Assembly (NCBI GenBank): GCA_022791835.1
Contig: JAAVZW010000064.1
Coordinates: forward strand, 14,336 to 78,335
From: Clostridia bacterium
GTDB taxonomy: Bacteria; Bacillota; Clostridia; TANB77; CAG-508
Reading direction: 5' to 3'
DNA length: 64,000 nt
In this document: positions 10,865-41,600 of the stretch, one piece after another
Layout: each line of letters starts with the position of its first letter
Numbering within the stretch: the stretch's first letter is position 1
Program-made: the position numbers and the translations under genes
Notes under the pieces: generated by a model
The model's input: the letters and a program-made list of their open reading frames with translations, nothing else
Told to the model about the DNA's origin: nothing
Database searches by the model: none

Positions 10865-11671
10865 ATGTCAAAGTGGGTATCACTCAAAGACCTAATGGAA
10901 AATCCAAGCAAATATGGAGTAGAAGACCCAAGAGAACTCGAAATCGCATATACCCCAGACAGAAAAAGTATCACATTAACGCAAGAAATGACAGGTCATA
11001 GCGAAGTACAAAACCTTGAAACCGAGACAGATGGACATAAGTATTACCCAGTAATCTATGAGGGAAAAGTATACATTGTATCAGACTCTGTAACAAAAAA
11101 TGATGTCGCGCTTGGAGGAGAAACAGGGTATAAAAATGGACCAAAGGCATTACAAAAGCATGCTGAGATTTATGGTAACGAAAAAATTACATCAAAAGGA
11201 GAAACGTGGAACGAAGCAACAATAGGAATCTTAGATATATTACCTAAGTTCCTAAGGAGAATAGAAGAAAGGTATTGGACAGAAATACAGTGGCCTGGTT
11301 ATTGCGCCTTCGGCCTGCAGCGTGTGTACTCGAGCGGCGTGCACTTCAACTATTTGTACTACTACTTCAGTGGCTCTATGCGTAGCGATACCTACAGTGG
11401 TGCGGTGCGCCCCCTAGTTTCTCTGATATCTAATATCCAAGTGGATATCGAAAAACTTGATGGAACACCATTAAGTTTAAGGTTACCAACCGAACAAAGC
11501 GAAGAGCAAATGGCAATAAAATCTGAAGATACCACAACAGTTCAAACTGACCTACTGAAACAGTTGGAAGCAAATATGTCAGAAATGTCAAGGCGTATTC
11601 AGCAATTGACCGCACAGTTGCAAGAAACAGCTCAATTAATTGAGCAAATCAAAACTCAAAACCTCACATAG
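10865..11671 (+). CDS. DUF1566 / Lcl-C-terminal-like (C-type-lectin clan) domain protein with C-terminal coiled coil; contains a DGR variable-region-like patch at ~11290..11420
   Basis: YWTE...AFGLQRVYSSGVHFNYLYYYFSGSMRSDTYSGAVRPLV resembles the DUF1566 / Fib_succ_major C-terminal motif (WWSST...AWY..F..G.....K....YVRCVR). Patch composition is described under findings. Confidence 0.6.
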   Translation: MSKWVSLKDLMENPSKYGVEDPRELEIAYTPDRKSITLTQEMTGHSEVQNLETETDGHKYYPVIYEGKVYIVSDSVTKNDVALGGETGYKNGPKALQKHAEIYGNEKITSKGETWNEATIGILDILPKFLRRIEERYWTEIQWPGYCAFGLQRVYSSGVHFNYLYYYFSGSMRSDTYSGAVRPLVSLISNIQVDIEKLDGTPLSLRLPTEQSEEQMAIKSEDTTTVQTDLLKQLEANMSEMSRRIQQLTAQLQETAQLIEQIKTQNLT

Positions 11672-11692
11672 GGAAAAAGCTAAACAACCCCT

Positions 11693-11735
11693 ATACCAAA
11701 AGCCTTCTGAATTCATTTCAGAAGGCTTTTGGTAT
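11693..11735 (+). terminator. 19-bp perfect stem, 5-nt loop hairpin (ataccaaaagccttctgaa-ttcat-ttcagaaggcttttggtat)
   Basis: Perfect inverted repeat 21 nt after the stop of the 10865..11671 gene. It lacks a clean 3' T-run, so it could be a terminator or another structured element. Confidence 0.5.
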
Positions 11736-11997
11736 AAGGAGATAATATAGCTTGCTATTAATATGACAGCTTAGTAAGAATTATAATAAAGGACATAATA
11801 AACTAATAATTAGAAAAAGATGAGCAAAATAGAAAAAATGGGGAATATTTACTTCAAATGATAAGAGACTTAAACAAATACAAAGAAAAAACTAAAATTT
11901 GAATTAGTAATATTTTACCTCAATCACTTGTATAATTTAGTCCTAATATAGTATACTATAAAAAGAAATAAAGCGAAAAGAAGAAAGGAGCAAATCA

Positions 11998-19416: not shown

Positions 19417-21526
19417 GTGGACAATTTTAAGAAAAAGAAAGCACCTAATATAAAATTAAGGTTCAACATATTAACAGGAATAATTTATGGACTAGGAGTA
19501 GTATTATTACTTGGGCTGGCTAATTTGCAAATAGTAAATGGTTCTACATACAGAGAAAACTCAAATACTAGACTTACTAGAGAGAGCACTTTATATGCAG
19601 CAAGGGGAAATATCCTAGACAGAAACGGAACTTACCTTGCAACAAGCGAAATGACTTTCTCGCTAGAATTATATAAAACAAAACTAGAAACAGAAGCTCT
19701 AAACGAAACTATACTAAGAGTAATAAATACATTAGAACAAAATGGAGACACATACACAGACACATTCCCAGTAGCAATAGAACCATTGAGATTTGACTTC
19801 AGTTCAGAAGAAAGAAAAAATACATGGCTAAAAAAATATAATTTTGAACCAGAAGCAACACCAGAAGACGTGTTAAACTATTTTAAAGACAAATATGAAA
19901 TAGAAAAAGAAGATATAAAGGAAATTAGAAAAATAATATCAGTAAGATATAGAATAACATCAGAAGGATATAGTGCAACAAAATCTTTAACAATATCAAA
20001 TAGTATAAGTAGAAAAAGTGCATTAATATTTGATGAACAAAGCGATAAATATCCAGGAATAGATGTAGCAACAAGTTCAAAAAGGCAATATCCAAATGGA
20101 AGCCTATCATCACACATTTTGCGGATATTATAGCTCAATATCAGCAAAACAATACGAAGAAAACAAAGATAAAGGCTATACAATGAATGACCTATATGGA
20201 CAAAATGGAATAGAATACGTATTCGAACAATACTTAAAAGGAAAAAACGGAATAAAACAAATAGATATGTCAGTAGACGGAAGTACAGTCGGAGAATATA
20301 TAGAAAAGGAAGCAATAGCAGGTTCTGATGTAGTATTAACAATAGATGCAAACTTACAAGCAGCAGCAGAAAAAGCCTTAGAAGAAGCAATAGTAAATGG
20401 GGAACCAGATAAAGACACAAAACTAAAGCCAAGTGCTGGAGCAATAGTAGCAATGAATGTGAGAACAGGAGAAGTACTAGCAATGGCAAGCTACCCAGAC
20501 TTTGAGCCAAGCTCATGGAATGGAGGAAGAATAGAAAAATCAGTATGGGACAAATACAATTCAGAAGAAAATGGAAGCCCGCTAGTAAATAGAGCAGTAT
20601 CAAGTGCATTTGCACCAGGTTCAACTTTTAAAATGATAACTGCAATTTCAGCATTACAGACAGGTAATGTAACAACAACAGAAAAAATAAACGACACAGG
20701 AGTATATCCAAGGGGGCATAACCCAGTATGTTGGATATATACATCAAGGCACATAGGACATGGATACTTAAATATAACCCAAGCAATACAAAGATCATGC
20801 AACTATTTCTTTTATGAAATGGGATATAGAATAGGAATAGAAACTCTAAATAGATATGTAAACCTATTTGGATTAGGCAGTAAAACAGGAATAGAGCTTA
20901 CAGGAGAAACAACAGGAAAAATAGCTAGCAGAGAGTCAACGGCCCAAAAAGGAGAAACATGGACAGTAGGTTACACACTATCAGCAGCCATAGGTCAAGG
21001 AGATAACAACTTTAGCCCAATACAAATGGCAAAATATATAAGCATCTTGGTAAATGGTGGTAAACAAATAAATCCTACATTAATTAGAGCAGTAGTAAAT
21101 CCAGACGGAAGTATAGAAGAAAGAAGCAACATAGAAACAAGTGTAAATGAAAGAATAGGAAGAAACATAGAAGCAAAAGAAGATATAGAAATAGACCCTA
21201 AAAACTTAGAAGTAGTACTAGAAGGAATGAGAGGAGTTACATCAGAAAGTGCAGGAACAGCTTATGGAGTATTCAAAAACTTTAGCATAGAAGTAGGTGG
21301 AAAAACAGGTTCGGCACAAACAGAACGTTCAACAAATGCATGGTTCGTAGGATTTGCACCATATGATAATCCAGAAATAGCAATAGCATGTATAATAGAA
21401 GATGGAGGAAGTGGAGCAATAGCATGTTATCCAGCAAGGGATGTAATAGCAAGATACTTTGGCACCCAAGAAGCAACAATCCAAGAAAATCTAACAGCTA
21501 TCCCAAACACAGAAAGACAAAACTAG
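19417..21526 (+). CDS. mrdA: penicillin-binding protein 2 (transpeptidase), interrupted by +1 frameshift at 20122
   Basis: N-terminal dimerisation domain in ORF 19417..20133 and transpeptidase domain (SxxK, SxN, KTG) in ORF 20096..21526. The join is attttg|c|ggatat, restoring the conserved HILGYY. Confidence 0.8.
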
Positions 21527-24060: not shown

Positions 24061-27000
24061 ATGAACAGAAAATTAACAACAAAGGTACTATCAGCAATTC
24101 TAGCATTCATGCTATCATTCGCAAATGTAGCATTACTTTTACCTTATGTAAATACTACATATGCTGCCGAAAATTTAGAACAACAAGATACAGCAGTAAA
24201 AAAAGCAGAAATAGAATTTGATGTGTACTTTAAAGAAAACGGAGCAAAAAAACATACTAAAACATTAAATGTAGAAGAAGAAAAGGACGAGCTTTATCTA
24301 AGTATAAAAGTAGGAGCAGGTTACTTAAGTAATGCAAGAATAAAAATAGAAAATGCAAACTTTAAACTAAAAGCACCTACAAGTAAAACAAACATTATAC
24401 AAAGTATAAACTCTGAAAGCAATGAAATACTTCTTAACCAAATAAGTACAGACGAAACAGTAGTACTAAATGTGCCAATTGAAATAAAAGCTGTTTCTAA
24501 TTTTGCTGTATCTGAATTAAGCAAAACATCAACAGCAAAACTAGTAGGAACATACACAAACAATAAAGGTAAAGAAGTAGAAGTAGAAAAATCAATAGAA
24601 TTAGAAACAACAATAGATGGAACAGCAGAGAGCATTTTAGAAGGAGAAGTTACAAAATATGTTTCTTTCGAACAAAATGGACAAAAAGGAGTAATTCTAC
24701 AAACATTAATAAAATCACAACTAGTAGAAAACAATTTACCAGTAAAACAAACCAAAATAGAAATAGAAGTTCCAAAAATAAATAATATAGAACCAAAAAC
24801 AATAGCATTATCATCAAAAACACTAATGTCAACAAAAGGACAAATAGGAAAAGTATTTGTGAAAGATGAAGATTACAAAATAGAGAATGGAAAAATAATT
24901 CTAACAATAAAAAATGGAGAAGACATTCTTGCATGGGAGAAAAATGCAAGTGATGAAATAATCCTAACATGTGTATATGGAGAAGGAGCAATCGAGAAAC
25001 AAAATATAGTAAACCTAAAAGCAAAATCACAAATAACATATTATGCGAAAGAACAAAAAATAGCAGAAAAAACATTAAACAAAGAAATAGAACTACAAGA
25101 ACAAATAGGAGATATTGTAACAGTAGATACAGAATCATCAGAAAACATACTATATAAAGGATACATGCAAACAGCAAATAGCAAAAATACACAATATATA
25201 AACAAAACAAGTATAAATATAGGATACAAAGAATTAGTAGACAAAATAATGCTACAAGATGAAACAAAATATGTAGACAATAATGGAAATGAATATCCAG
25301 CAAGTATTTTATATACATACACAAAAATAGAAAAAAATAACTTACTAGAAATCCTCGGAGAAGATGGATTTATCAATATTTACAGCAAAGACAAGAAACT
25401 AATATCTACTATTAATAAAGAAAACTTAGAATATAAATACGAAGAAGAAGTATCAGGACTAATCTTCGAAACAAGTAAACCAATAGCAGAAGGAATTTTA
25501 AACCTAGAAAATGGTAGAGAAATAAAACCATTAGAGTATAGCAAATTACAAGAAGAAGCATTTACAATGCTAAAAGAAACAGTAGTTGCAAATGTAATTA
25601 AAGACGAAACAATAAAAACAAGAGTACCAAAAATAACAAATATAGAATTAAAAGCACCAGAAACAAGAGCAAAAATAGAAATAGCAAATCCAAATATATC
25701 AACAGTAATAGAAAACAAAAATGTAGAATTAAGAGTAACACTATGCACTACAGAAGCAAACTCAGCATTATATAAAAACCCAGAAATAGAAATAGTAATG
25801 CCAAACTACATAACAAACCTAAAAATAGCTAGTGCAAAATTAGTATATGAAAACGAACTAAGAAAAGCAAATGCAGAACTATATAAAAATGAAAATGGAA
25901 ATACTGTTATAAAATTAGCCTTTACAGGAGAACAAACAAAATATAACGAAGAAGCAATTACAGAAGGAGCGACAATAGTAATCAAAGCAGACATGACAGT
26001 AAACCCACTAACACCAACAAGAAAAGCAGATGCAGTATTAACAGTTAAAAATGCAAAAACAAACGAAATAGTTACAAAAGCAGCTACAATGAATTTCATA
26101 GCACCAGTAGGAATAGTTACAGTAAACCAAATGGTAGGATACAATGAAGCAGGAGAAAGAGCAACATCAATAAGTGGAAAACAAGAAATTGGAGAAATAG
26201 CAGTCAACGCATCAGCAAAGACAGCTAAAGTAAACATGACAATTATAAACAACTATAACTGCGGATGCGAAAATATAAAAATCCTAGGAAGAACACCATT
26301 CAAAGGAAACAAATCAATAAAAACAAACAAAGACCTAGGAAGCACCTTCACAGCAAAAATGAAAAGCCAAATAACAGCTAGTGGAATAGAAGCAGACAAA
26401 GTAACCGTATATTATAGCACTAATGAAAATGCTAGCAAGGACTTAAGCAATAGTGCAAATGGTTGGACTGTAAGTCCATCAGACCTAGGAGAAGTAAAAT
26501 CATATATGATAGTACTAAATACCCATACAATAAACACAGGAGACATGATAGGCTTCAGCTATGATGTAGAAATTCCAGCAGAACTAAACTATAACGAAGA
26601 AACATACGGAACATTCACAGCATATTTCACAAAAGTAGCAGAAGAAGGAATAGCAAGAGTAGATGCCTATGAAGAAAGTATAGAAGGTACAGCAGTAGGA
26701 ATAACAACAGGAGCAGGACCAAATCTAGCAGTAGAACTTGAAGCAGATATAGAGAACAATGCAGGTGTAATAGAAAGAGATAATATAACATATAAAGTAA
26801 ATGTAAAAAATAATGCAGAATTAACAGCAAAAAATGTAAATGTAAAAGTAGAATTACCAAAAAATGTATTCTATATAAATGGCGAAAAAGTGGATACAGT
26901 AAATAAGACAATCAATATGCAAATAGCAGAAATTCCAGCAGGAGAAACAAAAAGTGTAACATTTGCTTTAAAAGTAGGAGAATACAACAAAGATTCAATA

Positions 27001-28932
27001 TTCAATCAGCAGGACCTAATAAATACAGATATTGAGATGGTAGATTCAAATAAAATAAATATAAAAGCAGTAGCAACAGTAGAAGGATATATATCAGAAT
27101 TTGAATCAAATGAGAGAATAAATAAAATAGTATCAGCAAATGAAAATCCTAGAATAATAATGAATTTTGTAGAATATCTAGGGAATAAAGGAACACCTGG
27201 TGTAGAAATGCTAATTTCAGCAGGAATAAGCAAAAACACAACAGAAGACCTACATAATGTAGTTGTAAAATGCAAAATACCAGAAGGACTAAAACTAACA
27301 AAACTAGACGACGAAACAAATAATTACCAATATGATAGCAAAACAAATACATTAACATGGAATGTAGGAACATTAGGAAATCATGAAGCACTAAGCTTTT
27401 GGGCAGAATTACAAGAAATTCCAGGAGCAAAATATCCAGTAGACATTCCAGTAGTATATACAGCAACATGCAACGAATCATCAGCAGAACAAAGAAGTGA
27501 ACCATACTCTATAAAATTATATAAAGAAGTATATAATATATCACAAACTAGCAACATATCAGGAGAATACATTACAAGTGGAGAAACAGTAATTTACTCA
27601 ATAACAGTAACAAATGAAACAAATGCACAAAGTAATATAACAATAAAAGATATTCTTCCAAACGGACTAAAATTTGAAAAATGTTTCTATACACAAAATG
27701 GACAAACAATAACAAGAACTAAAGCAACAAGTTCAGCCATATTAGAACCAGTAACATTAAAAGGAGGAGAAACATTAACAGTAAACATACAAGCAAAAGC
27801 AAAGGAATATCCACAAAATACACAAATAACAAACAAAGTATTTGTAGTAACAAATAAATATGAAGAAATGGCAGGCAATGAATTAACACACACAATACTT
27901 GGAGTAAAAGACACACCACCAAACCCAGATAAACCAACAAATCCAGATAATCCAGATATAAACAAAGAAAAATATACAATTTCGGGAACAGCATGGACAG
28001 ATACAAATAAAAATGGAATAAAAGAAGATGGAGAAAAGCTATTATCAGAAATAAAAGTATACTTATTAAACAGCAAAAACAATAATATAGTAAAAACAGC
28101 AACAACAAACACAAACGGATTATATACTTTCCTAGATGTACCAAAAGGAAGCTACATAATAGTATTTGAATATGACACAAATAAATATGAAATTGCACCA
28201 AACACTGACATAGTTGCAATGCAGTTAAAATTAAATGGAAAACAAGGCACATATGCAGCAACAAATGTAATGACACTAGAAAACAATACACACAATATAA
28301 ATCTAGGATTAGTAGAAAGCAATAAATTTGACTTGAAACTAGACAAAGTAATAGACCTAGTACAAGTAAGCAACCTAAAAGGAACAAAAACATATAACTT
28401 CAAAAGTACAGACCTAGCGAAAATAGAAATACCAGAAAAGCAAATGAATAATTCAGTAGTTGCAGTAACATACACAATGAAAATAACAAACGAAGGAACA
28501 GTAGCAGGATATGCAAACAAAATAGTAGACTACAAAGCAAAAGACTTAAGTTTCAGCTCAACACTAAATCCAGAATGGTATCAAGACATAAACGGTAACC
28601 TATATAATAGTACACTAAGTAGTAGACTAATAAAACCAGGAGAGACAGTTGAAGTATCCCTAATACTTACAAAAACAATGACTACAGAAAATACAGGACT
28701 ATCAAGCAACTCAGCAGAAATAGCAGAAGCATCAAACGACCAAGGATTAAAAGATATAGATTCAACACCAGGAAATAAAAATACATCAGAAGATGATTAC
28801 AGCACAGCAGATTTAATCGTAACAGTACAAACAGGAGGAATACTATTCTATGGAGGAATAGTACTAGCAGTACTTGGAATATTCGCTCTAGGAGCATATA
28901 TTATAAATAAAAAAGTGCTAATGAGAGTATAG
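24061..28932 (+). CDS. giant cell-surface adhesin-like protein (signal peptide, DUF11/CARDB-like repeats, Cna-B/SdrD-B domain, C-terminal TM anchor)
   Basis: N-terminal signal peptide. DUF11-like repeat (ITYKVNVKNNAELTAKNVNVKVELPKN...). Cna-B domain (YTISGTAWTDTNKNGIKEDGEK ... TNTNGLYTF). PNPDKPTNPDNPD linker. C-terminal VQTGG motif followed by a hydrophobic helix and KK. Confidence 0.75.
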   Translation: MNRKLTTKVLSAILAFMLSFANVALLLPYVNTTYAAENLEQQDTAVKKAEIEFDVYFKENGAKKHTKTLNVEEEKDELYLSIKVGAGYLSNARIKIENANFKLKAPTSKTNIIQSINSESNEILLNQISTDETVVLNVPIEIKAVSNFAVSELSKTSTAKLVGTYTNNKGKEVEVEKSIELETTIDGTAESILEGEVTKYVSFEQNGQKGVILQTLIKSQLVENNLPVKQTKIEIEVPKINNIEPKTIALSSKTLMSTKGQIGKVFVKDEDYKIENGKIILTIKNGEDILAWEKNASDEIILTCVYGEGAIEKQNIVNLKAKSQITYYAKEQKIAEKTLNKEIELQEQIGDIVTVDTESSENILYKGYMQTANSKNTQYINKTSINIGYKELVDKIMLQDETKYVDNNGNEYPASILYTYTKIEKNNLLEILGEDGFINIYSKDKKLISTINKENLEYKYEEEVSGLIFETSKPIAEGILNLENGREIKPLEYSKLQEEAFTMLKETVVANVIKDETIKTRVPKITNIELKAPETRAKIEIANPNISTVIENKNVELRVTLCTTEANSALYKNPEIEIVMPNYITNLKIASAKLVYENELRKANAELYKNENGNTVIKLAFTGEQTKYNEEAITEGATIVIKADMTVNPLTPTRKADAVLTVKNAKTNEIVTKAATMNFIAPVGIVTVNQMVGYNEAGERATSISGKQEIGEIAVNASAKTAKVNMTIINNYNCGCENIKILGRTPFKGNKSIKTNKDLGSTFTAKMKSQITASGIEADKVTVYYSTNENASKDLSNSANGWTVSPSDLGEVKSYMIVLNTHTINTGDMIGFSYDVEIPAELNYNEETYGTFTAYFTKVAEEGIARVDAYEESIEGTAVGITTGAGPNLAVELEADIENNAGVIERDNITYKVNVKNNAELTAKNVNVKVELPKNVFYINGEKVDTVNKTINMQIAEIPAGETKSVTFALKVGEYNKDSIFNQQDLINTDIEMVDSNKINIKAVATVEGYISEFESNERINKIVSANENPRIIMNFVEYLGNKGTPGVEMLISAGISKNTTEDLHNVVVKCKIPEGLKLTKLDDETNNYQYDSKTNTLTWNVGTLGNHEALSFWAELQEIPGAKYPVDIPVVYTATCNESSAEQRSEPYSIKLYKEVYNISQTSNISGEYITSGETVIYSITVTNETNAQSNITIKDILPNGLKFEKCFYTQNGQTITRTKATSSAILEPVTLKGGETLTVNIQAKAKEYPQNTQITNKVFVVTNKYEEMAGNELTHTILGVKDTPPNPDKPTNPDNPDINKEKYTISGTAWTDTNKNGIKEDGEKLLSEIKVYLLNSKNNNIVKTATTNTNGLYTFLDVPKGSYIIVFEYDTNKYEIAPNTDIVAMQLKLNGKQGTYAATNVMTLENNTHNINLGLVESNKFDLKLDKVIDLVQVSNLKGTKTYNFKSTDLAKIEIPEKQMNNSVVAVTYTMKITNEGTVAGYANKIVDYKAKDLSFSSTLNPEWYQDINGNLYNSTLSSRLIKPGETVEVSLILTKTMTTENTGLSSNSAEIAEASNDQGLKDIDSTPGNKNTSEDDYSTADLIVTVQTGGILFYGGIVLAVLGIFALGAYIINKKVLMRV

Positions 28933-28953
28933 AAAGAAAGGAGGACAAAAGAA

Positions 28954-31900
28954 ATGGAAAAAAAGAAAAAAATTAGTAGCAAACTAAAACTGATTATAAT
29001 ACTTACATTTGCAATAGTTGTACTATCAGCAGGAATAGTATCAGCAGTAGTACATCGATATCCAATGAGTGATCACCATGATGGAGCAATTGTATGGGGA
29101 CCTACAAAAGGAGAAATATTCAAGCAGTTTTGGGACGACCCAAATAACTATAACTGGGATAACCTTCCTACATGGTTATTTGCAGAATGGAATATATCTC
29201 TTTGGTGTGCACAAAAAGGAGGATGGATAGGAGGCAAAAGCCAGTTAGTAACAGAAGAACACTATTGGGCATATGTGAGCAAAGAAGGAGATCCTCAATA
29301 TGAAACACATACAGTGCCATATGATGAAAATAACCCATTCAAATGGTATAGAAGAAGTGAAACTATGGGACTTGTAACTGATCACCATGATTGGGAATTT
29401 AACAAATACGAAAAAGAACTGAAAGATGCATCATACTGTGGTAAATATACTGCTGAATATGACGAAGATGATCAACCAATTATCGACTCATTGGAAGCTG
29501 GTGCACCAGGACGTGCATATCCAAAGGAAAATGCTCATTCAATAGAATGGTATTATAACAGAGATCTTATAGAAAAGGATTATCAACATTTGCGTTACAT
29601 ACTTACAGCAAGACCAATATATGATAATGCAGATGATGTGCCAAGAGACCCAGAACCAATAAACAAAGAAGATGGAGAATTTGATGTAAAAGAAAAACAA
29701 GGTGCAATATGGCGCATACCAGAATTTAGCGGAAATATTGTAAATGAAAGTGAGTTACCAGACGATAGAAACTTAGGCCACATTGCACTAGAATATCAAA
29801 AATTCTATGAGGCTATACATAATGCGACTGGAGAAGACAGATATGAAGACATAATAAAACCATACAATGCATGGAAAGACAGAGACGAAATGAAAGAAAC
29901 TTCAGACGATATCGAAGAAAGTACAATAAAACTACCAGATGAAGATAAAGAACTAAAAGACTATATATATAAAGACACTGGCGTGGAAGTAGATGCATGG
30001 ACAGGAGCATATTTACTTGGACCATACTGCATAGATTATTCAGTAAACGATGAAGAAAAAGATAGATATGGTGCACCAACATTTGATGTGTGCGAAGTAA
30101 AATACAATGCAATCCAAGACATCACAGTATATAACCAAGATGGAAAAAATATAGAAGATTTTGGAGGAAGTTTCAAAATAGTATATCCATCAGAAGGAGT
30201 GCCAACATCAAAAGAAGAAGCAAAACTAGTACGTATAAATGATAAACCATATGAAGTAGAAGATGTAAAACTAGACGGAGAAGAAATTTTTGCACCAGAA
30301 TCAAGAAGACCATTCTACATAGTAGTAATAAGAGGTGATATGAAAGCAGAAGACTTTACAGGTATACATGCAAAGATAGACTTTCAATACTTAGAACATG
30401 TAGATGGTACAGCATCAGAATATAAAACAAGAGTACGCGAACACTGGTATTCGAGACAAGATGGAGATTTGTTTAAATATAAATTTACTGGCTCATATTG
30501 CGCAGGTCATGATGAGTGGGGAAATTGTATAATGAAATCTTCTTCAAAAAGTGAAGAGACAGTAGAAACATATATATATGAATTACATAGAAAAGAGTGC
30601 TCACATAAAGCACAAATCATGGCAGCATATAGCCATGATGGATGGAGACACTATAAAAAATACTCAATAGTAATTTCATCAGAATGGGAGATAGAACCAC
30701 CACCAAATATCCAAGTGCAAAAACTATGTAAAGAATGTGGACCACTATATGGTGCAGAATTCGATATAGAGTTAAGATTTGAAGGAAAAGATGGACAAAA
30801 CGAAACACCAGTAAATAAAACACTATACTTTACAAGAATAACAGACACAAAAGGACTTGCAACAGTTACAGCAGAAGAAATAGAAGCAGAAGGAGTATAT
30901 ATAAGAACATTCTCAGGCTACATCACAGCAGTATTCAAAGAAACACAACCACCAGCAGGGCATAAGCTAAATGATACAGAAGCGACAATGATAATAAGAT
31001 TAGAAAAAGGCGCAATGCAAATGTGCGGAGGTTATGGAGTAGAGTGGATACGTGATGAAGAAACAGCAATAGCTAGAATAACAATCTACAATGAAGATGG
31101 TGGAATACCAATAATCCAACTAGCAAAAGTAGATTCAAATGCAGGACTAGTTAAAGAAGCATTTTTCGAAGTACATGTAAGCTATACAGACCCAGAGGGA
31201 GTAGTATACAGAGACGGAAAAATCGTAAGATATGGAGACTTGATTGACAAAAAATATAATATCATAAGAGGTAGAACAAAAAATGGTATACTAAATCTAA
31301 CAGTAGAAGACTTTGCAAATATGAAATATGGCTTTAATATAGTAGGATATACAGGAAAAATAACATTAGATATTGTTGAAGTTAGAGTAGATAGTGGAGG
31401 ATACTCAGTATCTCCAAGAAGCAAAGACGTGACATTAACATATCATGAAGGAGAACTAGTAGACTACACAGAATACACAGATGCACCAGTAATAACTCAC
31501 TACATATATGATAACCCATTAGCAGAAATATATGACTGGGCAAAAGGTAGAATAAGTTACAGTAACTTAAGTAAAGATGTACAAAGATATGTAGACAGAT
31601 GGTTATCTAGACAACAAAATAAACATCCAGAAATGAAATATGATGATATATTAGCATGGTTAGTAAGTTACTTAGAAGAAGGACAAAGAGAGGGTACATT
31701 AAATCTGTATGATAATATAGAAGAATGGAAACATTCAACTATGACAACAGAGACCAAGTCAACAGCAAAAAATGGAGAAATAGCACAAATAACAATAGAA
31801 GACTTCCCAGGAAAAGATATAGACATACCAGACATACCAAAAACACCAGAAGCAAATCCTCTATTCATGACAATAGCAGGAACAGTATTCCTAGACCAAA

Positions 31901-34900
31901 CAACAACAAAAGGAGAAATAGACGAATCAAACGGATACCTAGACAAAGGCGAAACACTACTAATGGGTATAGAAGTTACTCTATACGAAGAAAACGGAAC
32001 AAAAGCAACATTAATACCAGCAGATGGAGAAATCCGTACAAATCCAACAATGACAAATTTCAACGGATACTATGAATTCAGAGGAGTAGACCCAATGAAA
32101 AAATACTATGTAGAATTCAAGTATAATGGAATGGAATATAAGACAACACAAAGTGAAAATGCAACATATAATGGAGAAGCATGGGCAAAGACATCAAAAG
32201 GTTCAGACCTAATTAGTTCAAGAGCAGGAGTAACAAATAAATATAACACAGTAACATATGATACAAAAGCATATGACTACTATGAACTACAAGGACTATA
32301 CACAGAGATGGCAAAAGAGACACTACAATACATAAGAGACAACAATAGCTATCCAGCAGATCCATATTCACTAATAGGAGCACACCTTGAAGATAAAGAA
32401 ATAAAAGACAAAATAGCATACATGAAAGCATGTGAAGTAAAAGCATATGCAGGATATAACTCAATCCAAAGTGGAATAGGAAGCCCATCAGCAAATGGAA
32501 CATATGCACATTCAAGTCTAGGAGATAGATTTGTAATGGATGGAGCATCAATAAATACTGAAGGAGACTCAATCTCATTTGCAGGAGATACAGTAAAGAA
32601 ACTATATCCAGGACAACTACAAGTACACCTAGGATTAATAGAAAGAGACAGCACAGACCTATCACTACTAACAGATATAGTAAAGACAAATGTATCAGTA
32701 AATGGATATGACACAACATATAACTATCACCAAGGACTAAGTTCATATCACCAATATATCTTTGAAGAAGACTATAACTATTCAAAGACACCAAACACAA
32801 ATGGTATAGCATACTATACAGAAGACAATATAGACCTATACCTAACATATGAAATAGCAGTAAGAAATGATACAAAAATAGCAACAGCACCATTACAAAT
32901 AGTAGATTACTATAACAATAGATTCACATACCAAGACGGCTATACAACAAGCAAAGGCAACCATATAGCAGGACTTAGAATAAATGGTAATGAAGTAACT
33001 GGTAGAATAACAGCAAATGGATTTAATAATGCAGGTGTAAGCAGTAAGCCAAAAGACTATAATGCATTATTCATAAACCTAGGACAAGGCTATCTACTAA
33101 ACAGTCCAGATGATGAGTTAAAGATACAAATAACTTTCAAGCTAACAGATAGAAATGGACATGCAACAGAAGTATTAAAAGAAATGTTATTACAAGAAGA
33201 TAGAGACAATAAATACTCAAGATCATGGGAAATTAAGAATTACGCAGAAATAAACGCTTACTACACACCAGAAGGATACCTAGATAGAGACTCACATCCA
33301 GGAACATTTGAAATAACTAAATTTGAAGAACGACTAGCTGAATATCAAAAAGCATATGCAAAATATGTATTCAGTCAAAGCGAAGATGACAAACGTGCAG
33401 TAAAACTTGCATTAGGAAGAATGACAGACCTAAGAGAAGACGATGCATGGAAAGTAAGCTTAATACTTTCAAACAATGGATATGTAAGAGAACTATCAGG
33501 AAATGTTTGGGAAGCAATAAATGATGAAGTTAAGAACTCTCTACACTTACAAAAAGGCTTTGGAGAAAGACTATTAACAAAGAGTGATAAGAGCGAACTG
33601 AACTTAGCTGGAATAAAAGTAGAATTAGTAGAAATGCTAAAGAATACACAACATAACCCAGATCCAGATAATTCAAGAGATGGTGCAACACAATTAGTAA
33701 GAGGACAAACAGTAACAGACGAAAATGGTAACTACAAATTCACAGCATACCTTGCAGGAGACTATGCAGTAAGATTTGTATATGGAGACTACGAAGATAC
33801 AAGCAAAACAATCTACAGCAAAGTTTCAAAGAACACATTCAAACCAGAAAGTGAAGCAGACCCATTACCAATAAATGGACAATACTATCAATCAACAAAG
33901 GCAAACCCAAATACAGATAGTGAACCATATTGGTACAAACAAAGAGTATACAATGAAACAACAAAATTACCAGATGAAATAACAGGAATACCAAGATATT
34001 CAGATGCATACGACGATGCATACAGCAGACTATCACAGATGAAATCTAAGATAGACAAAGCAGAAAATTCTACATCAACAGAATACGACTATGATGGAGT
34101 ACTAGAAGTAGAATCAACAAGACACACAGACCCAATGTATGCATATACATCTACAATGGAACTAGAAGTAGAATACACAAGACCAGCGACATCAGGAAAC
34201 GCAAGCAATGTATTCTATGGATACTCAATAAGCGACATAGACTTTGGTATAACTCCAAGAGCATACAATGACTTAGGCATAGATAAATATGTAGCTAATA
34301 TAAAATTGTACACAGTAGATGGCAATAAGCTAATAGATACAAACTTTGATGAAAATGGTAAAGTAATATTAGATTCAGCAACACAAAATATTGTAAAAGA
34401 TGAATTAACATCAAATACTTACCTAGATAACTTCATAGATATAATCTACAACACAGAATTACTACAAGGTGCTACACTAGAAATAACCTTTAAAGTAGTA
34501 GTATCAAACGATAGCTTACATGATGGAGACAAATACGATACAATCAAATATATTAGCAAAGATGGAAAAGTAGTTGCAGTAGCATACTATGATGAAGCAG
34601 TAGAGACACTAACAAGTTATGAAGGAAATGGAAGAGGAACACCTACAATAGTATATCACAATACATCTGGAGATAAAGATTACTCAGATACAGTACTAAC
34701 AAAAGAACATAATGCAAGAGTAAATAACACATCAGACAGATTAAGAAAATTCAGCTTAATTACAGGATACAATGTAGGCAACGCAGAAATAATAACATCA
34801 AGAGCAACAAATATAGTAGACTACATCAATACTCCATTCGACGTAAACCATGAAAACTTTACAAAAGCAGGAGTAAACCCATATTGGGAACCAACAGACC

Positions 34901-35436
34901 CAAGCAAGTTCGTATCAAGTCGTGAAAAATATAAAGCAGAAAACGGACAAGACCTACTAAGTACCTATGACCACATAGTTAGAGCAACAGATAACAGCCC
35001 ACTATATAAAGTATTAAAACCAGGAGAAAGGACAGAAGACGAAATAGTACTATCAGGAATTCTAGGCACATCAGCATCAGGCTCATCAGACTTCGAATTC
35101 TCTAACCTAATAGAAATCACAAGAATGAGAAACACAGCAGGTAAGATAGTAGACATAGAGGGATACGACATAAAAGGTAAAACTGATAGAGAAACATCTG
35201 AAGTAAGACACTTAAAGAACATAGATGGAGAGCCACCAGCAGACGAAACACCAAAATACACACCAACAATCTCTACATCTAAATCACCAACAATTAAAAT
35301 AAACGTAGCAGATGGTCTAACAGTAATCCAAGACGTAGTAGGATCAAACGTAGGAATAGTAATAATTGCACTAGTAATCTTAGCAGCAGGAATAGTACTA
35401 ATCAAAAGGTTTGTAATCCCAAGTCATAAGGAATAA
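28954..35436 (+). CDS. giant cell-surface protein (signal anchor, Trp-rich N-terminal domain of unknown function, two Cna-B domains, C-terminal TM anchor)
   Basis: At 2160 aa it contains two Cna-B-type domains (IAGTVFLDQTT...NGYYEF and LAGIKVELVEM...NGNYKFTAY). It ends in a hydrophobic helix followed by KRF. Confidence 0.75.
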   Translation: MEKKKKISSKLKLIIILTFAIVVLSAGIVSAVVHRYPMSDHHDGAIVWGPTKGEIFKQFWDDPNNYNWDNLPTWLFAEWNISLWCAQKGGWIGGKSQLVTEEHYWAYVSKEGDPQYETHTVPYDENNPFKWYRRSETMGLVTDHHDWEFNKYEKELKDASYCGKYTAEYDEDDQPIIDSLEAGAPGRAYPKENAHSIEWYYNRDLIEKDYQHLRYILTARPIYDNADDVPRDPEPINKEDGEFDVKEKQGAIWRIPEFSGNIVNESELPDDRNLGHIALEYQKFYEAIHNATGEDRYEDIIKPYNAWKDRDEMKETSDDIEESTIKLPDEDKELKDYIYKDTGVEVDAWTGAYLLGPYCIDYSVNDEEKDRYGAPTFDVCEVKYNAIQDITVYNQDGKNIEDFGGSFKIVYPSEGVPTSKEEAKLVRINDKPYEVEDVKLDGEEIFAPESRRPFYIVVIRGDMKAEDFTGIHAKIDFQYLEHVDGTASEYKTRVREHWYSRQDGDLFKYKFTGSYCAGHDEWGNCIMKSSSKSEETVETYIYELHRKECSHKAQIMAAYSHDGWRHYKKYSIVISSEWEIEPPPNIQVQKLCKECGPLYGAEFDIELRFEGKDGQNETPVNKTLYFTRITDTKGLATVTAEEIEAEGVYIRTFSGYITAVFKETQPPAGHKLNDTEATMIIRLEKGAMQMCGGYGVEWIRDEETAIARITIYNEDGGIPIIQLAKVDSNAGLVKEAFFEVHVSYTDPEGVVYRDGKIVRYGDLIDKKYNIIRGRTKNGILNLTVEDFANMKYGFNIVGYTGKITLDIVEVRVDSGGYSVSPRSKDVTLTYHEGELVDYTEYTDAPVITHYIYDNPLAEIYDWAKGRISYSNLSKDVQRYVDRWLSRQQNKHPEMKYDDILAWLVSYLEEGQREGTLNLYDNIEEWKHSTMTTETKSTAKNGEIAQITIEDFPGKDIDIPDIPKTPEANPLFMTIAGTVFLDQTTTKGEIDESNGYLDKGETLLMGIEVTLYEENGTKATLIPADGEIRTNPTMTNFNGYYEFRGVDPMKKYYVEFKYNGMEYKTTQSENATYNGEAWAKTSKGSDLISSRAGVTNKYNTVTYDTKAYDYYELQGLYTEMAKETLQYIRDNNSYPADPYSLIGAHLEDKEIKDKIAYMKACEVKAYAGYNSIQSGIGSPSANGTYAHSSLGDRFVMDGASINTEGDSISFAGDTVKKLYPGQLQVHLGLIERDSTDLSLLTDIVKTNVSVNGYDTTYNYHQGLSSYHQYIFEEDYNYSKTPNTNGIAYYTEDNIDLYLTYEIAVRNDTKIATAPLQIVDYYNNRFTYQDGYTTSKGNHIAGLRINGNEVTGRITANGFNNAGVSSKPKDYNALFINLGQGYLLNSPDDELKIQITFKLTDRNGHATEVLKEMLLQEDRDNKYSRSWEIKNYAEINAYYTPEGYLDRDSHPGTFEITKFEERLAEYQKAYAKYVFSQSEDDKRAVKLALGRMTDLREDDAWKVSLILSNNGYVRELSGNVWEAINDEVKNSLHLQKGFGERLLTKSDKSELNLAGIKVELVEMLKNTQHNPDPDNSRDGATQLVRGQTVTDENGNYKFTAYLAGDYAVRFVYGDYEDTSKTIYSKVSKNTFKPESEADPLPINGQYYQSTKANPNTDSEPYWYKQRVYNETTKLPDEITGIPRYSDAYDDAYSRLSQMKSKIDKAENSTSTEYDYDGVLEVESTRHTDPMYAYTSTMELEVEYTRPATSGNASNVFYGYSISDIDFGITPRAYNDLGIDKYVANIKLYTVDGNKLIDTNFDENGKVILDSATQNIVKDELTSNTYLDNFIDIIYNTELLQGATLEITFKVVVSNDSLHDGDKYDTIKYISKDGKVVAVAYYDEAVETLTSYEGNGRGTPTIVYHNTSGDKDYSDTVLTKEHNARVNNTSDRLRKFSLITGYNVGNAEIITSRATNIVDYINTPFDVNHENFTKAGVNPYWEPTDPSKFVSSREKYKAENGQDLLSTYDHIVRATDNSPLYKVLKPGERTEDEIVLSGILGTSASGSSDFEFSNLIEITRMRNTAGKIVDIEGYDIKGKTDRETSEVRHLKNIDGEPPADETPKYTPTISTSKSPTIKINVADGLTVIQDVVGSNVGIVIIALVILAAGIVLIKRFVIPSHKE

Positions 35437-38600: not shown

Positions 38601-41600
38601 ATGAATTAATGAATGAAGAAAATTCTTTCTTACCACCAGATAATATACAAGAAAGTAGAAGAGAAAAAGTAGTATCAAGAACATCGTCAACTAATATAGG
38701 ACTTGGATTACTTACAATAGTTTCTGCATATGATATGGGATTTATAACTTTAGAAGAAACAATAGTAAAACTAGAAAAGACAATGCAAACAATAGTGAAA
38801 CTAGAAAAATGGAATGGACATCTATACAATTGGTATAATACAAAAACACTAGCACCACTAATTCCTAAGTATGTATCAACAGTAGACAGCGGAAACTTTG
38901 TGCGGATACATGTATACACTAAAGGAATTTTTAAAAGAAATATCAAATGTAGAATACAAAAATAGAATAAACGCTATGTTATTAGAAATAGAAAAAATAA
39001 TAGAAGAAACGGATTTTTCATATCTATATAGCAAAGAAAACAGACTATTATCAATAGGATATAATGTAGAAGAAAACGAATTAACAGACACATACTATGA
39101 CTTACTAGCATCAGAAGCAAGACAAGCAAGTTTAATTGCAATAGCTAAAAAAGATATTCCATCTAAACACTGGAACAATTTAAGCAGAACATTGACAAAG
39201 CTAGGAAAATACAAAGGCTTAATATCATGGTCAGGAACAGCTTTTGAATATTTAATGCCAAATATAAATATAAAAAGATATAATCGGAAGCCTTTTAGAT
39301 GAATCCTGCAAATTTATGATAATGAGTCAGCAAAAATATACAAATAAATTAAGAATACCATGGGGAATATCAGAAGCAGCATTCAACTTAAAAGATTTGA
39401 ATTCGAACTATCAGTATAAAGCCTTTGGTGTACCCTGGCTAGGATTAAAAAGAGGCTTAGGAGATGAAATGGTCGTTTCTAGCTATGGTTCTATCCTTGC
39501 TATAACCGATTATCCAAAAGCAGTAATAGAAAACTTAAAAATCCTAGAAAAACAAGGCATGTATGATAAATATGGTTTCTATGAATCAATAGACTATACT
39601 CCATCAAGATTAGCAGTGCGGTAAAGAATATGCAAAAGTAGAAACATATATGGCACACCACCAAGCATTAATATTACTATCAATAAATAACTTAGTGAAT
39701 AAAAATATATTCCCAAATAGATTTATGAGAAATCCAGAAATACAAGCAATAGATATTCTTTTGCAAGAAAGAATGCCAAGAAACATGCTAATCACAAAAG
39801 AAAGAAAAGAAAAAACCAAGAAAATAAAATACACAGGATATAACAATTATATAGAAAAGAAATATACAAAAATAGATGCAATACTAAGAAAATCAAATAT
39901 ATTATCAAATGAAGAATATTTAATAGAAATAAATGATAAAGGAGAGGGATATAGCAAACATAAAGGAATATTAATAAACAAATATAAAGAAACAGAAGAT
40001 AGCTCATGTGGTATATTCTTTTACTTAAGAAATACTAAGACAGGTAAAGTGTGGAAGACAAGCTATGAAGGAAAAGAAGAAAAGTACGAAGTAACATTTG
40101 CAGAAGATACAGCAAAATTTACAAAATCACAAGATGGTATAGAAACAGAGGCAAAAATCCTTACGGCATCAAATCTAGGTTGTGAAATAAGAAGCCTAAA
40201 AATAAAAAATAATACAGAAGAAGAAGTGGAACTAGAAGTAAATACCCTATTAAAACCAGTTTTGTCAAAAATGGAAGATGATATTTCACATCCAGCCTTT
40301 AATAATTTATTCTTAAAATATTGGACATCAAAAAATGGAGATATATTAGTAAAAAGAAATAAAAGAGGAGCGGGCAAAGAGCTATATTTAGGTACAAATT
40401 TATTTGAAGAAGAAAATATAAATGCAAAAATAGAATATGAAATAGATTTATCGAAAGTATATGAAAAAATAAATACTGGAAATGAATTCGAAAGCAAAAT
40501 AGGACTAATGCCAGAAAGTTGTATAGCCCTAAGAAGAAAAATCAAAATAAAATCAGGAAAAGAAGCAAATTTAAACTTAATAATTAGTGTATCAGAGAAT
40601 GAAGAAGAAGTAATAAAAAATCTAGAATATTATAAAATACCAGAGAATGTAAAAAGAGAAGCGGGAATTGCAAGAGCAAAAGCAGAGGAAGAGGCAAGAT
40701 ATTTGAATTTAAGTAGAACAGACCTAGAGACTTTTCATCTAATATTACCATATATAATGCACCCAAACCCAATGAAATCACTATATCTAGAAAATTTGGA
40801 AAAAAAGGAATATAAGCAAAGCGACTTTTGGAAATATGGAATATCAGGAGATATACCAATAATGCTAGTTACAATCAAATCAGCAAACGATATATATACA
40901 GTAAAAGAAATGCTGAAAGTCCATGAAAATTTAAGAGCAAAAGGAATAAATACAGACCTTATACTATTAGATTATGAGAAAAATATTTATGAAAGGTTTG
41001 TAAAAGAACAAATAATACAAGAAATATTAAACCAACAAATAGGCTATTTGCAAAATATAAGTGGCGGAATATTTATTTTAAACGCAAATGAAATAGAAGA
41101 TGAAGAATTGTTCAAGTTTAAAGCTAATATAATAATAAACGCATCAAAAGGTACAGTACAAGAAGCGATAAAAGAAATGGAAGAAGCATATAAGGCAAGA
41201 TTTTTAAGGTATAATGGGGAAACTATAAATTACACAAGGGAACTACCAAAGACACAAGAATATGAACAGATAAAGCCAAATGTAAATATGGAAGAACTAA
41301 AATACTATAATGGCTATGGAGGTTTTGCACCAGATGGAAGAGAATATATAATAAGAACAAATAAAAACTTAAAGCCACCAGTAGTCTGGAGTAATGTATT
41401 GGCAAATGAGAAATTTGGTACAATTATCACAAATAACATGGGTGGTTTCACATATAGCAAAAACAGTAGATTAAATAGAATAACAGCATGGGCAAATAAA
41501 CCAATAGAAGATATTCCTTCAGAAATAATATATATTAAAGATTTAAAAGATAAAAACATATGGACTTTAAATTCAAATGTAATACCAGATAAAGAAGATT

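Follow-up and report, generated by a model that had tools for sequence, protein, structure and literature searches.

A strain-variable, adenine-poor segment in a lectin-like gene of a Clostridia bacterium is very likely the variable region of a remote diversity-generating retroelement target

The DNA analysed here (the window) is a stretch of 64,000 nucleotides from contig JAAVZW010000064.1 of an uncultured gut Clostridia bacterium. Our subject is one gene in this window, at 10865..11671 on the + strand, and a short segment inside it that a preliminary description had proposed to be the variable region (VR) of a diversity-generating retroelement (DGR) target gene. The gene is an intact open reading frame (ORF) of 268 aa. 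In GenBank its product is hypothetical protein HFJ52_08380 (MCI8397593.1), encoded on a 116,890-nt contig of a metagenome-assembled genome (MAG) labelled 'Clostridia bacterium'. It lies in the order FtsH, Prs, S21, target gene, two M16 peptidases. The rpsU (S21) terminator, at 10658-10675, is located upstream of a promoter sequence at 10719..10747 (+ strand; TTGACA, 17-nt spacer, TATAAT) that agrees with the consensus at 12 of 12 positions and, judged by this consensus match only, would act as the target gene's own, strong promoter. A terminator-like long perfect hairpin with a 20-bp stem follows 3' of the gene (11691..11737, strand not assigned). Within the gene, 10865..11509 (+ strand) encodes a globular domain with a C-type-lectin-like fold (aa 1-215). 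The VR, as delimited by strain variability, occupies 11291..11401 (+ strand; aa 143-179, WPGYCAFGLQRVYSSGVHFNYLYYYFSGSMRSDTYSG), and it is followed by a GC-rich 3' boundary element at 11402..11424 (+ strand; GCGGTGCGCCCCCTAGTTTCTCT, encoding AVRPLVSL), a putative initiation of mutagenic homing (IMH) element.

The window belongs to a low-GC Firmicute chromosome with an A-rich coding strand, and nearly all of its genes lie on the + strand. This strand is strongly purine-loaded, with 45.8% A overall and, in five genes neighbouring the target, 66% A at third codon positions. Against this background the patch at 11290-11420 contains 19 A in 131 nt (14.5%) and has a GC content of 55.7%, the median of the window's 131-nt stretches being 45.8% A and 30.5% GC. 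The patch is thus not simply A-poor and GC-rich, as had been noted before, but the most A-poor and GC-rich 131-nt stretch in the 64 kb; the next-lowest A fraction, about 0.25, occurs on minus-strand genes. The reported excess of NNC codons was also reproduced. Read in frame, the 43 codons of 11291-11419 comprise 20 NNC, 12 NNT, 10 NNG and a single NNA, whereas only 11% of third positions in the five neighbouring genes are C; given the third-position usage of these genes, the probability of 20 or more NNC codons is ∼1e-8. Within the VR proper, A is absent from third positions (0%), and the columns that are invariant over eight VRs hold A in only 7 of 54 cases. Adenine depletion of this kind is expected under a DGR, since every non-variable position of the template must avoid adenine.

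A protein search yielded 17 relatives of the target, and the alignment shows that those 86–92% identical to it differ mainly at discrete positions of the patch. Variability of the patch among isolates had been named as a check in the preliminary description, and we carried it out with three orthologous loci (L008, L009 and L010), in which S21, the target and the two M16 peptidase genes occur in the same order as in the window. In the bin 11320-11409, these loci show 22, 19 and 17 mismatches per 90 nt, respectively, whereas the flanking genes (∼99–100% identity), compared in bins of the same size, mostly have 0–3 mismatches per bin. Among the four strains, 34 of the 112 columns in 11290-11401 are variable and 30 of these fall at codon positions 1 and 2; just outside the VR, 4 of 38 and 3 of 60 columns vary. 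Variation begins at ∼11291 and ends at GCGGTGCGCCCCCTAG (11402-11417). Seventeen VR codons vary at positions 1 and 2, and in 15 of them the third base is invariant (8 C, 6 T and 1 G). Single sites reach four different bases in the four strains; codon 160 reads CAC, TGC, TAC or AAC, and codon 177 reads TAC, CTC, GAC or ATC. This is the site pattern expected of an AAY signature, in which AAC and AAT codons of a template would be copied with random bases opposite adenine. Drift, selection or gene conversion would not be expected to yield it.

Divergence of the gene was also seen beyond the VR. Over 10690-11770, comparison of the window with L010 shows the whole target gene to be ∼9% diverged and the flanking peptidase genes to be ∼99.9% identical. 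Outside the VR, 49 of the 63 codons of the target gene that vary among the four strains are non-synonymous. Together these observations suggest allele exchange with paralogues or rapid evolution.

At the 3' edge of the VR, the sequence GCGGTGCGCCCCCTAGTTTCTCT occurs once in the window. It shows no change among the four orthologues, and its first 16 positions (11402-11417) are also nearly invariant in paralogues of the target and in the pilin-like genes described below. In the published description of the IMH, a GC-rich stretch of 14 bp at its start marks where mutagenesis ends on the 3' side (PMC5758913), and the element at 11402-11417 fits this. The earlier suggestion that this GC-rich run is IMH-like stands, because variability stops there and because the run is conserved across orthologues, paralogues and pilin-like targets. 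A GATATC...GATATC inverted repeat slightly further downstream (11430..11454, + strand), proposed at the same time as an accompanying hairpin, was not supported. It has a weak, AT-rich stem of 6–8 bp, the DNA fold of 11395-11470 reaches −9 kcal/mol with z = −1.8, and the 5' arm varies in paralogues without compensation (GCTATC, AATATC, GTTATC, ACCATC and GACATC). The repeat is probably not a functional hairpin and not part of the system. A GC-rich inverted repeat is not present downstream of the IMH at the target, where only the AT-rich stem is found; such a repeat is optional and occurs in 34% of DGRs (PMC5758913).

In order to place the target protein, sequence and structure comparisons were combined. 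Pfam, NCBIfam and PHROGs assigned it to no family, and a sequence search of the PDB returned no match. The AlphaFold model (pLDDT 96) adopts a C-type-lectin fold whose C-terminal strands contain the VR, in agreement with the C-type-lectin clan proposed for it. A Foldseek comparison with the PDB gave no significant match; the nearest structures to the model are DUF6273 proteins, and in a structure comparison with viral models the only meaningful match was likewise a DUF6273 protein. The more specific label DUF1566, which had been attached to the domain, was not upheld. The Pfam DUF1566 HMM did not match the target protein even at E<=10, no HMM test supports the label, and the structural neighbours point instead to a C-type-lectin domain of the DUF6273 type. 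DUF6273 is a C-type-lectin-like DGR-target domain that carries VRs at its C-terminus (PMC11792537, PMC10743442). The DUF6273 HMM matched 0 of 127 members of the target family, and hhalign of the family against a DUF6273-positive protein gave a probability of 34%; the relationship is at best one of remote homology. Judged by the predicted structures, the family is related to the DUF6273 type and has no Pfam model of its own.

An HMM search over 1.84 billion representatives recovered 351 relatives of the target, a family without a Pfam model. Most of them are single-domain proteins of ∼200 residues, and some are repeated modules in giant dockerin or LRR proteins. At the position of the VR, many family members carry ordinary K/E/D-rich sequence and others are clearly VR-like. 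The target protein has neither a signal peptide nor a transmembrane segment (maximum Kyte-Doolittle 19-aa mean 0.78), and a prepilin-type hydrophobic N-terminus is not present. Downstream of the globular domain, 11530..11668 (+ strand, ∼aa 223-267) encodes a long C-terminal helix, which probably forms a coiled-coil tail according to the first AlphaFold run. This run, made with 18 sequences, was unusable overall (pLDDT 52), with block mean pLDDT values of 77–85 over the helix. The helical tail is kept in some family members and missing in truncated paralogues.

The VR scaffold and the GC element are not restricted to the orthologues; the nucleotide sequence of both is conserved even in distant paralogues (L001, L002), and also in unrelated genes of the pilin-like type (L012, L016). 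The pilin-like P0126 (L012), P0165 (L016), P0139 and P0164, which have a prepilin-type N-terminus, end in the same scaffold and GC element, and their contigs provide ordinary chromosomal contexts. The target protein has only the C-terminal lectin-like domain and the VR scaffold in common with P0126, P0139 and P0165. A second type of scaffold is common to a small family member, P0018, and the pilin-like P0166. Each lineage seems to diversify a dispersed set of genes of two architectures with one template.

Paralogues of the target lie at several chromosomal positions. In MAG GCA_949745695.1, three tandem copies are found downstream of leuS (L001 10001-12495), the middle one having an in-frame TAG and a tail deletion; the contig stops within the third copy. 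Two other paralogues are located near rpoB. One of these, P0014, lies upstream of rpoB (L002 2207-2851, L003 2581-3225) and is identical in at least six samples; it is also identical in two strains whose surrounding DNA is 98.3% identical. In P0014 the GC element carries a G-to-A change, scaffold codons are altered in a non-canonical way and the C-terminus is truncated; P0014 is apparently a frozen, decaying target that left the system. At the same loci, in two independent MAGs, the gene calls break rpoB into two ORFs of 271 and 869 aa with ∼340 nt between them (L002 3233-6995, L003 3606-7368). In two species, the rpoB-linked paralogue is preceded by ORFs for small proteins that match Spo0A_C weakly (L003 48-536, L011 6094-6579), and the ORFs of L003 sit in a segment of higher GC content. 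A GC-rich patch at L003 135-285 had been followed as a lead and was dropped because it is this higher-GC insert with the Spo0A_C-like ORFs.

A profile search with VR peptides detected an 81-residue ORF, P0339, and its cluster mate P0342, which are encoded on two short contigs, L017 (518 nt) and L018 (655 nt), that have a unit of ∼410 nt in common (L017 57-466 and the aligned region of L018) and unrelated flanks. In both contigs a TTGACA...TATACT promoter-like site precedes ∼160 nt homologous to the VR only, followed by the GC element and a conserved AT-rich region of 165 nt; after this region, L018 has a hairpin plus T8. Between the two contigs, the repeat shows 15 differences over 157 positions, most of them in hypervariable codons, and the 3' region 5 over 166 positions. 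Of the 15 codons hypervariable in the window lineage, the units carry AAC or AAT at 9, compared with 1–4 of 15 in real VRs, and their departures from the window scaffold are synonymous (CTG/TTG, AGT/AGC, GGC/GGT and TCT/TCG). The GC element is common to the target and both units up to ...CCCCCTAG; from position +17, where the target reads TT, L017 and L018 read CT, as IMH* does. When the VR of a pilin-like fragment, P0337, was compared with the core of L018, all differences but one were reachable from adenines. On these sequence features, the two units are read as template repeats (TRs) of a sister lineage. The predicted RNA fold of the template-like unit was no better than that of shuffled sequences. 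Upstream of the unit in L017, an ORF fragment was compared with the AAA_14/DUF4143 ATPase of the window (44687-46003); the similarity covers 9 residues only (EYMIVGG.P) and is probably coincidental.

As stated in the preliminary description, the window itself holds neither a TR nor a reverse transcriptase (RT). An A-tolerant sliding scan of both strands returned only A-rich background and no TR, a generic repeat search gave none either, the YxDD motif of RTs is absent from all six frames, and a Pfam scan found no RT domain among ∼35 window proteins. The contexts of nine related target genes contain no RT within reach. Scans of viral and JGI metagenome contigs with VR/TR backbone and IMH/IMH* patterns did not find the cognate template, and in GTDB genomes the scan gave a single result, L013, a VR that is of the same class but unrelated. 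Searches of phage and plasmid records with blastn and tblastn found neither template nor RT, and no RT came from searching GTDB genomes and viral contigs for related loci by their proteins. Since no RT or TR lies in the window, a remote, trans-acting element is required for the target VR. The L013 contig comes from a rabbit-gut Clostridia MAG and encodes a SipW-type signal peptidase and a TasA-like cluster (61-6893); the secreted proteins of this locus carry DUF6273-type domains, and one of them has an A-poor, VR-like C-terminus ending in GCGGTGCGCCCCTTAGTT.

We consider it very likely that 11291-11401 is a genuine DGR VR in a remote target gene and that it was diversified recently, unrelated variants being found between near-identical flanks. 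The central idea of the preliminary description is thus strongly supported by the hypervariability among strains at codon positions 1 and 2, the GC-rich 3' boundary, the lectin fold and the reuse of the scaffold. By analogy with described DGRs, a TR RNA encoded elsewhere in the genome would be reverse-transcribed by a DGR RT, probably with an Avd-type partner, and template adenines would be copied as any base during reverse transcription. The resulting cDNA would then replace the VR, starting at the GC-rich element at 11402-11424. Information would presumably flow from a cognate TR to the VR, and the system may still be active. The template would read approximately TTC GGC CTG CAG AAT GTG AAC TCG AGC GGY GTG AAC AAC AAC AAT TTG TAC AAC TAC AAC AGT GGC TCT AAG AAT AGC AAT ACC AAC AGT AAT GCG GTG CGC CCC CTA G. 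On such a template ∼15–17 codons would be randomised at their first two positions, while adenine-avoiding scaffold codons would stay fixed. The randomised residues would lie in the C-terminal β-strands of a C-type-lectin-like domain, the scaffold with which DGR targets usually bind ligands, here presented by a small, predicted leaderless lectin-like domain with a helical tail. The gene would be one of several dispersed targets, which would include the paralogues by leuS and rpoB and the pilin-like proteins. Remote DGR targets have been described at distances above 100 kb from the RT (PMC5758913), and metagenome surveys miss remote DGR targets by design (PMC8144416).

Several points weigh against this interpretation. 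Cognate TR, RT and Avd were found neither in the window nor in the sequence around related loci, and the viral, metagenome, genome, phage and plasmid collections did not yield them; the A-to-N rule is consequently read at this locus indirectly, from the VRs. The template-like units of L017 and L018 are not cognate to the window VR, from which they differ by 24–29 non-adenine mismatches that lie partly beyond the boundary; their contigs have ∼1–2x coverage and carry no RT. A few third-position C/T differences in the scaffold of the VR are not adenine-derived, and MAG consensus sequences may blur population variation. Since the target gene diverges also outside the VR, recombination contributes to the allele differences. 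Finally, the VR is internal, with ∼90 codons following it, and most DGR VRs are C-terminal.

The absence of an RT and a TR from the 64 kb would also fit a fossil VR, written by a past DGR whose retroelement has since been lost or inactivated in this genome, so that the segment now evolves slowly like any other. Frozen VRs do exist in the lineage, as can be seen for P0014 with its altered GC element and its identity in several samples, and an identical copy of the window VR is present in a second data set (P0001 from JGI). We nevertheless regard a fossil as improbable. Four strains with near-identical flanks carry four different VRs, with up to four bases at one site, and the diversification must therefore be much younger than the 0–1% divergence of the flanks; for the same reason, the decayed DGR that the preliminary description had allowed for is unlikely at this locus. 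In addition, the GC boundary element is intact at the target, as are the ORF, the consensus promoter and the terminator-like hairpin.

Explanations that dispense with a retroelement account for less of the data. Strong selection for diversity at a ligand-binding surface, acting together with gene conversion between paralogous copies, could bring existing variants into this locus from the several paralogues per genome, some of them in tandem, and both the ∼9% divergence of the whole gene from L010 between almost unchanged flanks and the many non-synonymous codons outside the VR point to allele exchange. Such a process, however, leaves unexplained why variation is found only at positions 1 and 2 of codons with a fixed C or T, why third-position A is completely missing in a genome with 66% A at these positions, why an identical nucleotide scaffold recurs in unrelated pilin-like genes and why non-coding, AAY-rich copies with their own promoter exist. 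Nor do the four strains carry VRs that are mosaics of the observed paralogue VRs, and we regard this explanation as very improbable. The sharp GC step at both edges of the patch might alternatively reflect a compositional mosaic, in which a short segment with foreign GC content, either taken up horizontally or part of a conserved domain, is present without any special mutation mechanism. This is contradicted already by the strain comparison, in which the patch is the most variable part of the locus and not the most conserved; a foreign segment would not give site-specific saturation, and similar DNA was not found in the scanned phage, plasmid, viral, metagenome and genome collections. We give a mosaic next to no credence.

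The neighbours of the target are ordinary housekeeping genes, and farther along the window encodes MecA, RadC, MreB, MreC, PBP2 and MinC. Scans for tRNAs and Rfam families gave zero matches in the 64 kb. Under translation table 11, DnaB appears split or frameshifted (4749-5636), with a stop after 97 of the 255 positions of its C-terminal domain, PBP2 is split over two overlapping ORFs (19417-21526) and a GH94 phosphorylase is represented by two ORFs with a 375-nt gap between them (39650-43698). These interruptions could be due to assembly indels in A-runs or could be real pseudogenes. Two adjoining giant ORFs (1623 and 2160 aa) at 24061-35436, with DUF11, SdrD_B and CarboxypepD_reg-like domains, probably encode cell-surface proteins. 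Since Spo0E-like and YpeB genes are present on related contigs, the organism is probably a spore former.

If the segment at 11291-11401 is a DGR VR as we propose, it is an orphan VR that could be recognised from sequence alone, by its low adenine content and its NNC/NNT codons within an A-rich genome, with the comparison of strains as subsequent confirmation. Large DGR surveys begin from the RT and look for a VR on the same contig (PMC8144416), and remote targets are therefore systematically missed. The analysis also exposes an unannotated C-type-lectin family of 351 representatives that lacks a Pfam model and is hypervariable in some members; in the lineage of the target, this family and the pilin-like proteins have one template-defined scaffold in common. 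If the target protein is truly cytoplasmic, it would add to the few cases of DGR-diversified proteins that are not at the surface. A bolder reading, which we think rather unlikely, is that of a fully dispersed DGR. In such a system a free-standing small RNA gene for the TR, made up of promoter, TR, ∼165-nt 3' region and terminator and detached from the RT, would serve about a dozen scattered targets of two architectures, namely pilin-like surface proteins and leaderless lectin-like domains, some of them coiled-coil-tailed, by core housekeeping genes. The leaderless lectin-like targets may then be intracellular hypervariable binders. If the template is truly a stand-alone RNA gene, this would change how DGR cassettes are to be sought.

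Compared to known systems, the mechanism and the existence of remote targets are not new (PMC5758913); new here are the unannotated lectin-like family, the internal VR, the leaderless, helical-tailed protein and the dispersed co-targets, which include pilin-like proteins. One close system is the DGR of Treponema denticola (TvpA family), which has multiple dispersed remote targets (Wu et al. 2018, PMC5758913). TvpA, however, is a lipoprotein of the FGE-sulfatase type with a C-terminal VR, whereas the target described here belongs to another, unmodelled C-type-lectin family, is leaderless and has an internal VR followed by ∼90 residues that include the helical tail. DUF6273-type targets have been described in Faecalibacterium prophages and among 'tentaclin' phage proteins (PMC11792537, PMC10743442). 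Unlike these, the target here has no DUF6273 HMM match and is chromosomal, lying between rpsU and peptidase genes with no phage context, and no relatives of it were found in phage collections. The Legionella class of LdtA and the Lcl C-terminus (DUF1566, 'CLec2' VR class) differs in that the present target has no DUF1566 match, carries no lipoprotein signal and comes from a Gram-positive host. In its inferred mechanism the system resembles Mtd/Brt/Avd of Bordetella phage BPP-1, with variable residues that are coded by AAY and displayed on a C-type-lectin scaffold, and with an IMH whose GC-rich start of 14 nt lies at the 3' limit of mutagenesis (PMC5758913). In BPP-1, target, avd, TR and brt are adjacent and a GC-rich cruciform follows the IMH, whereas here nothing is adjacent, the repeat is AT-rich and unconserved, and the TR-like unit of the sister lineage looks like a separate small transcription unit.

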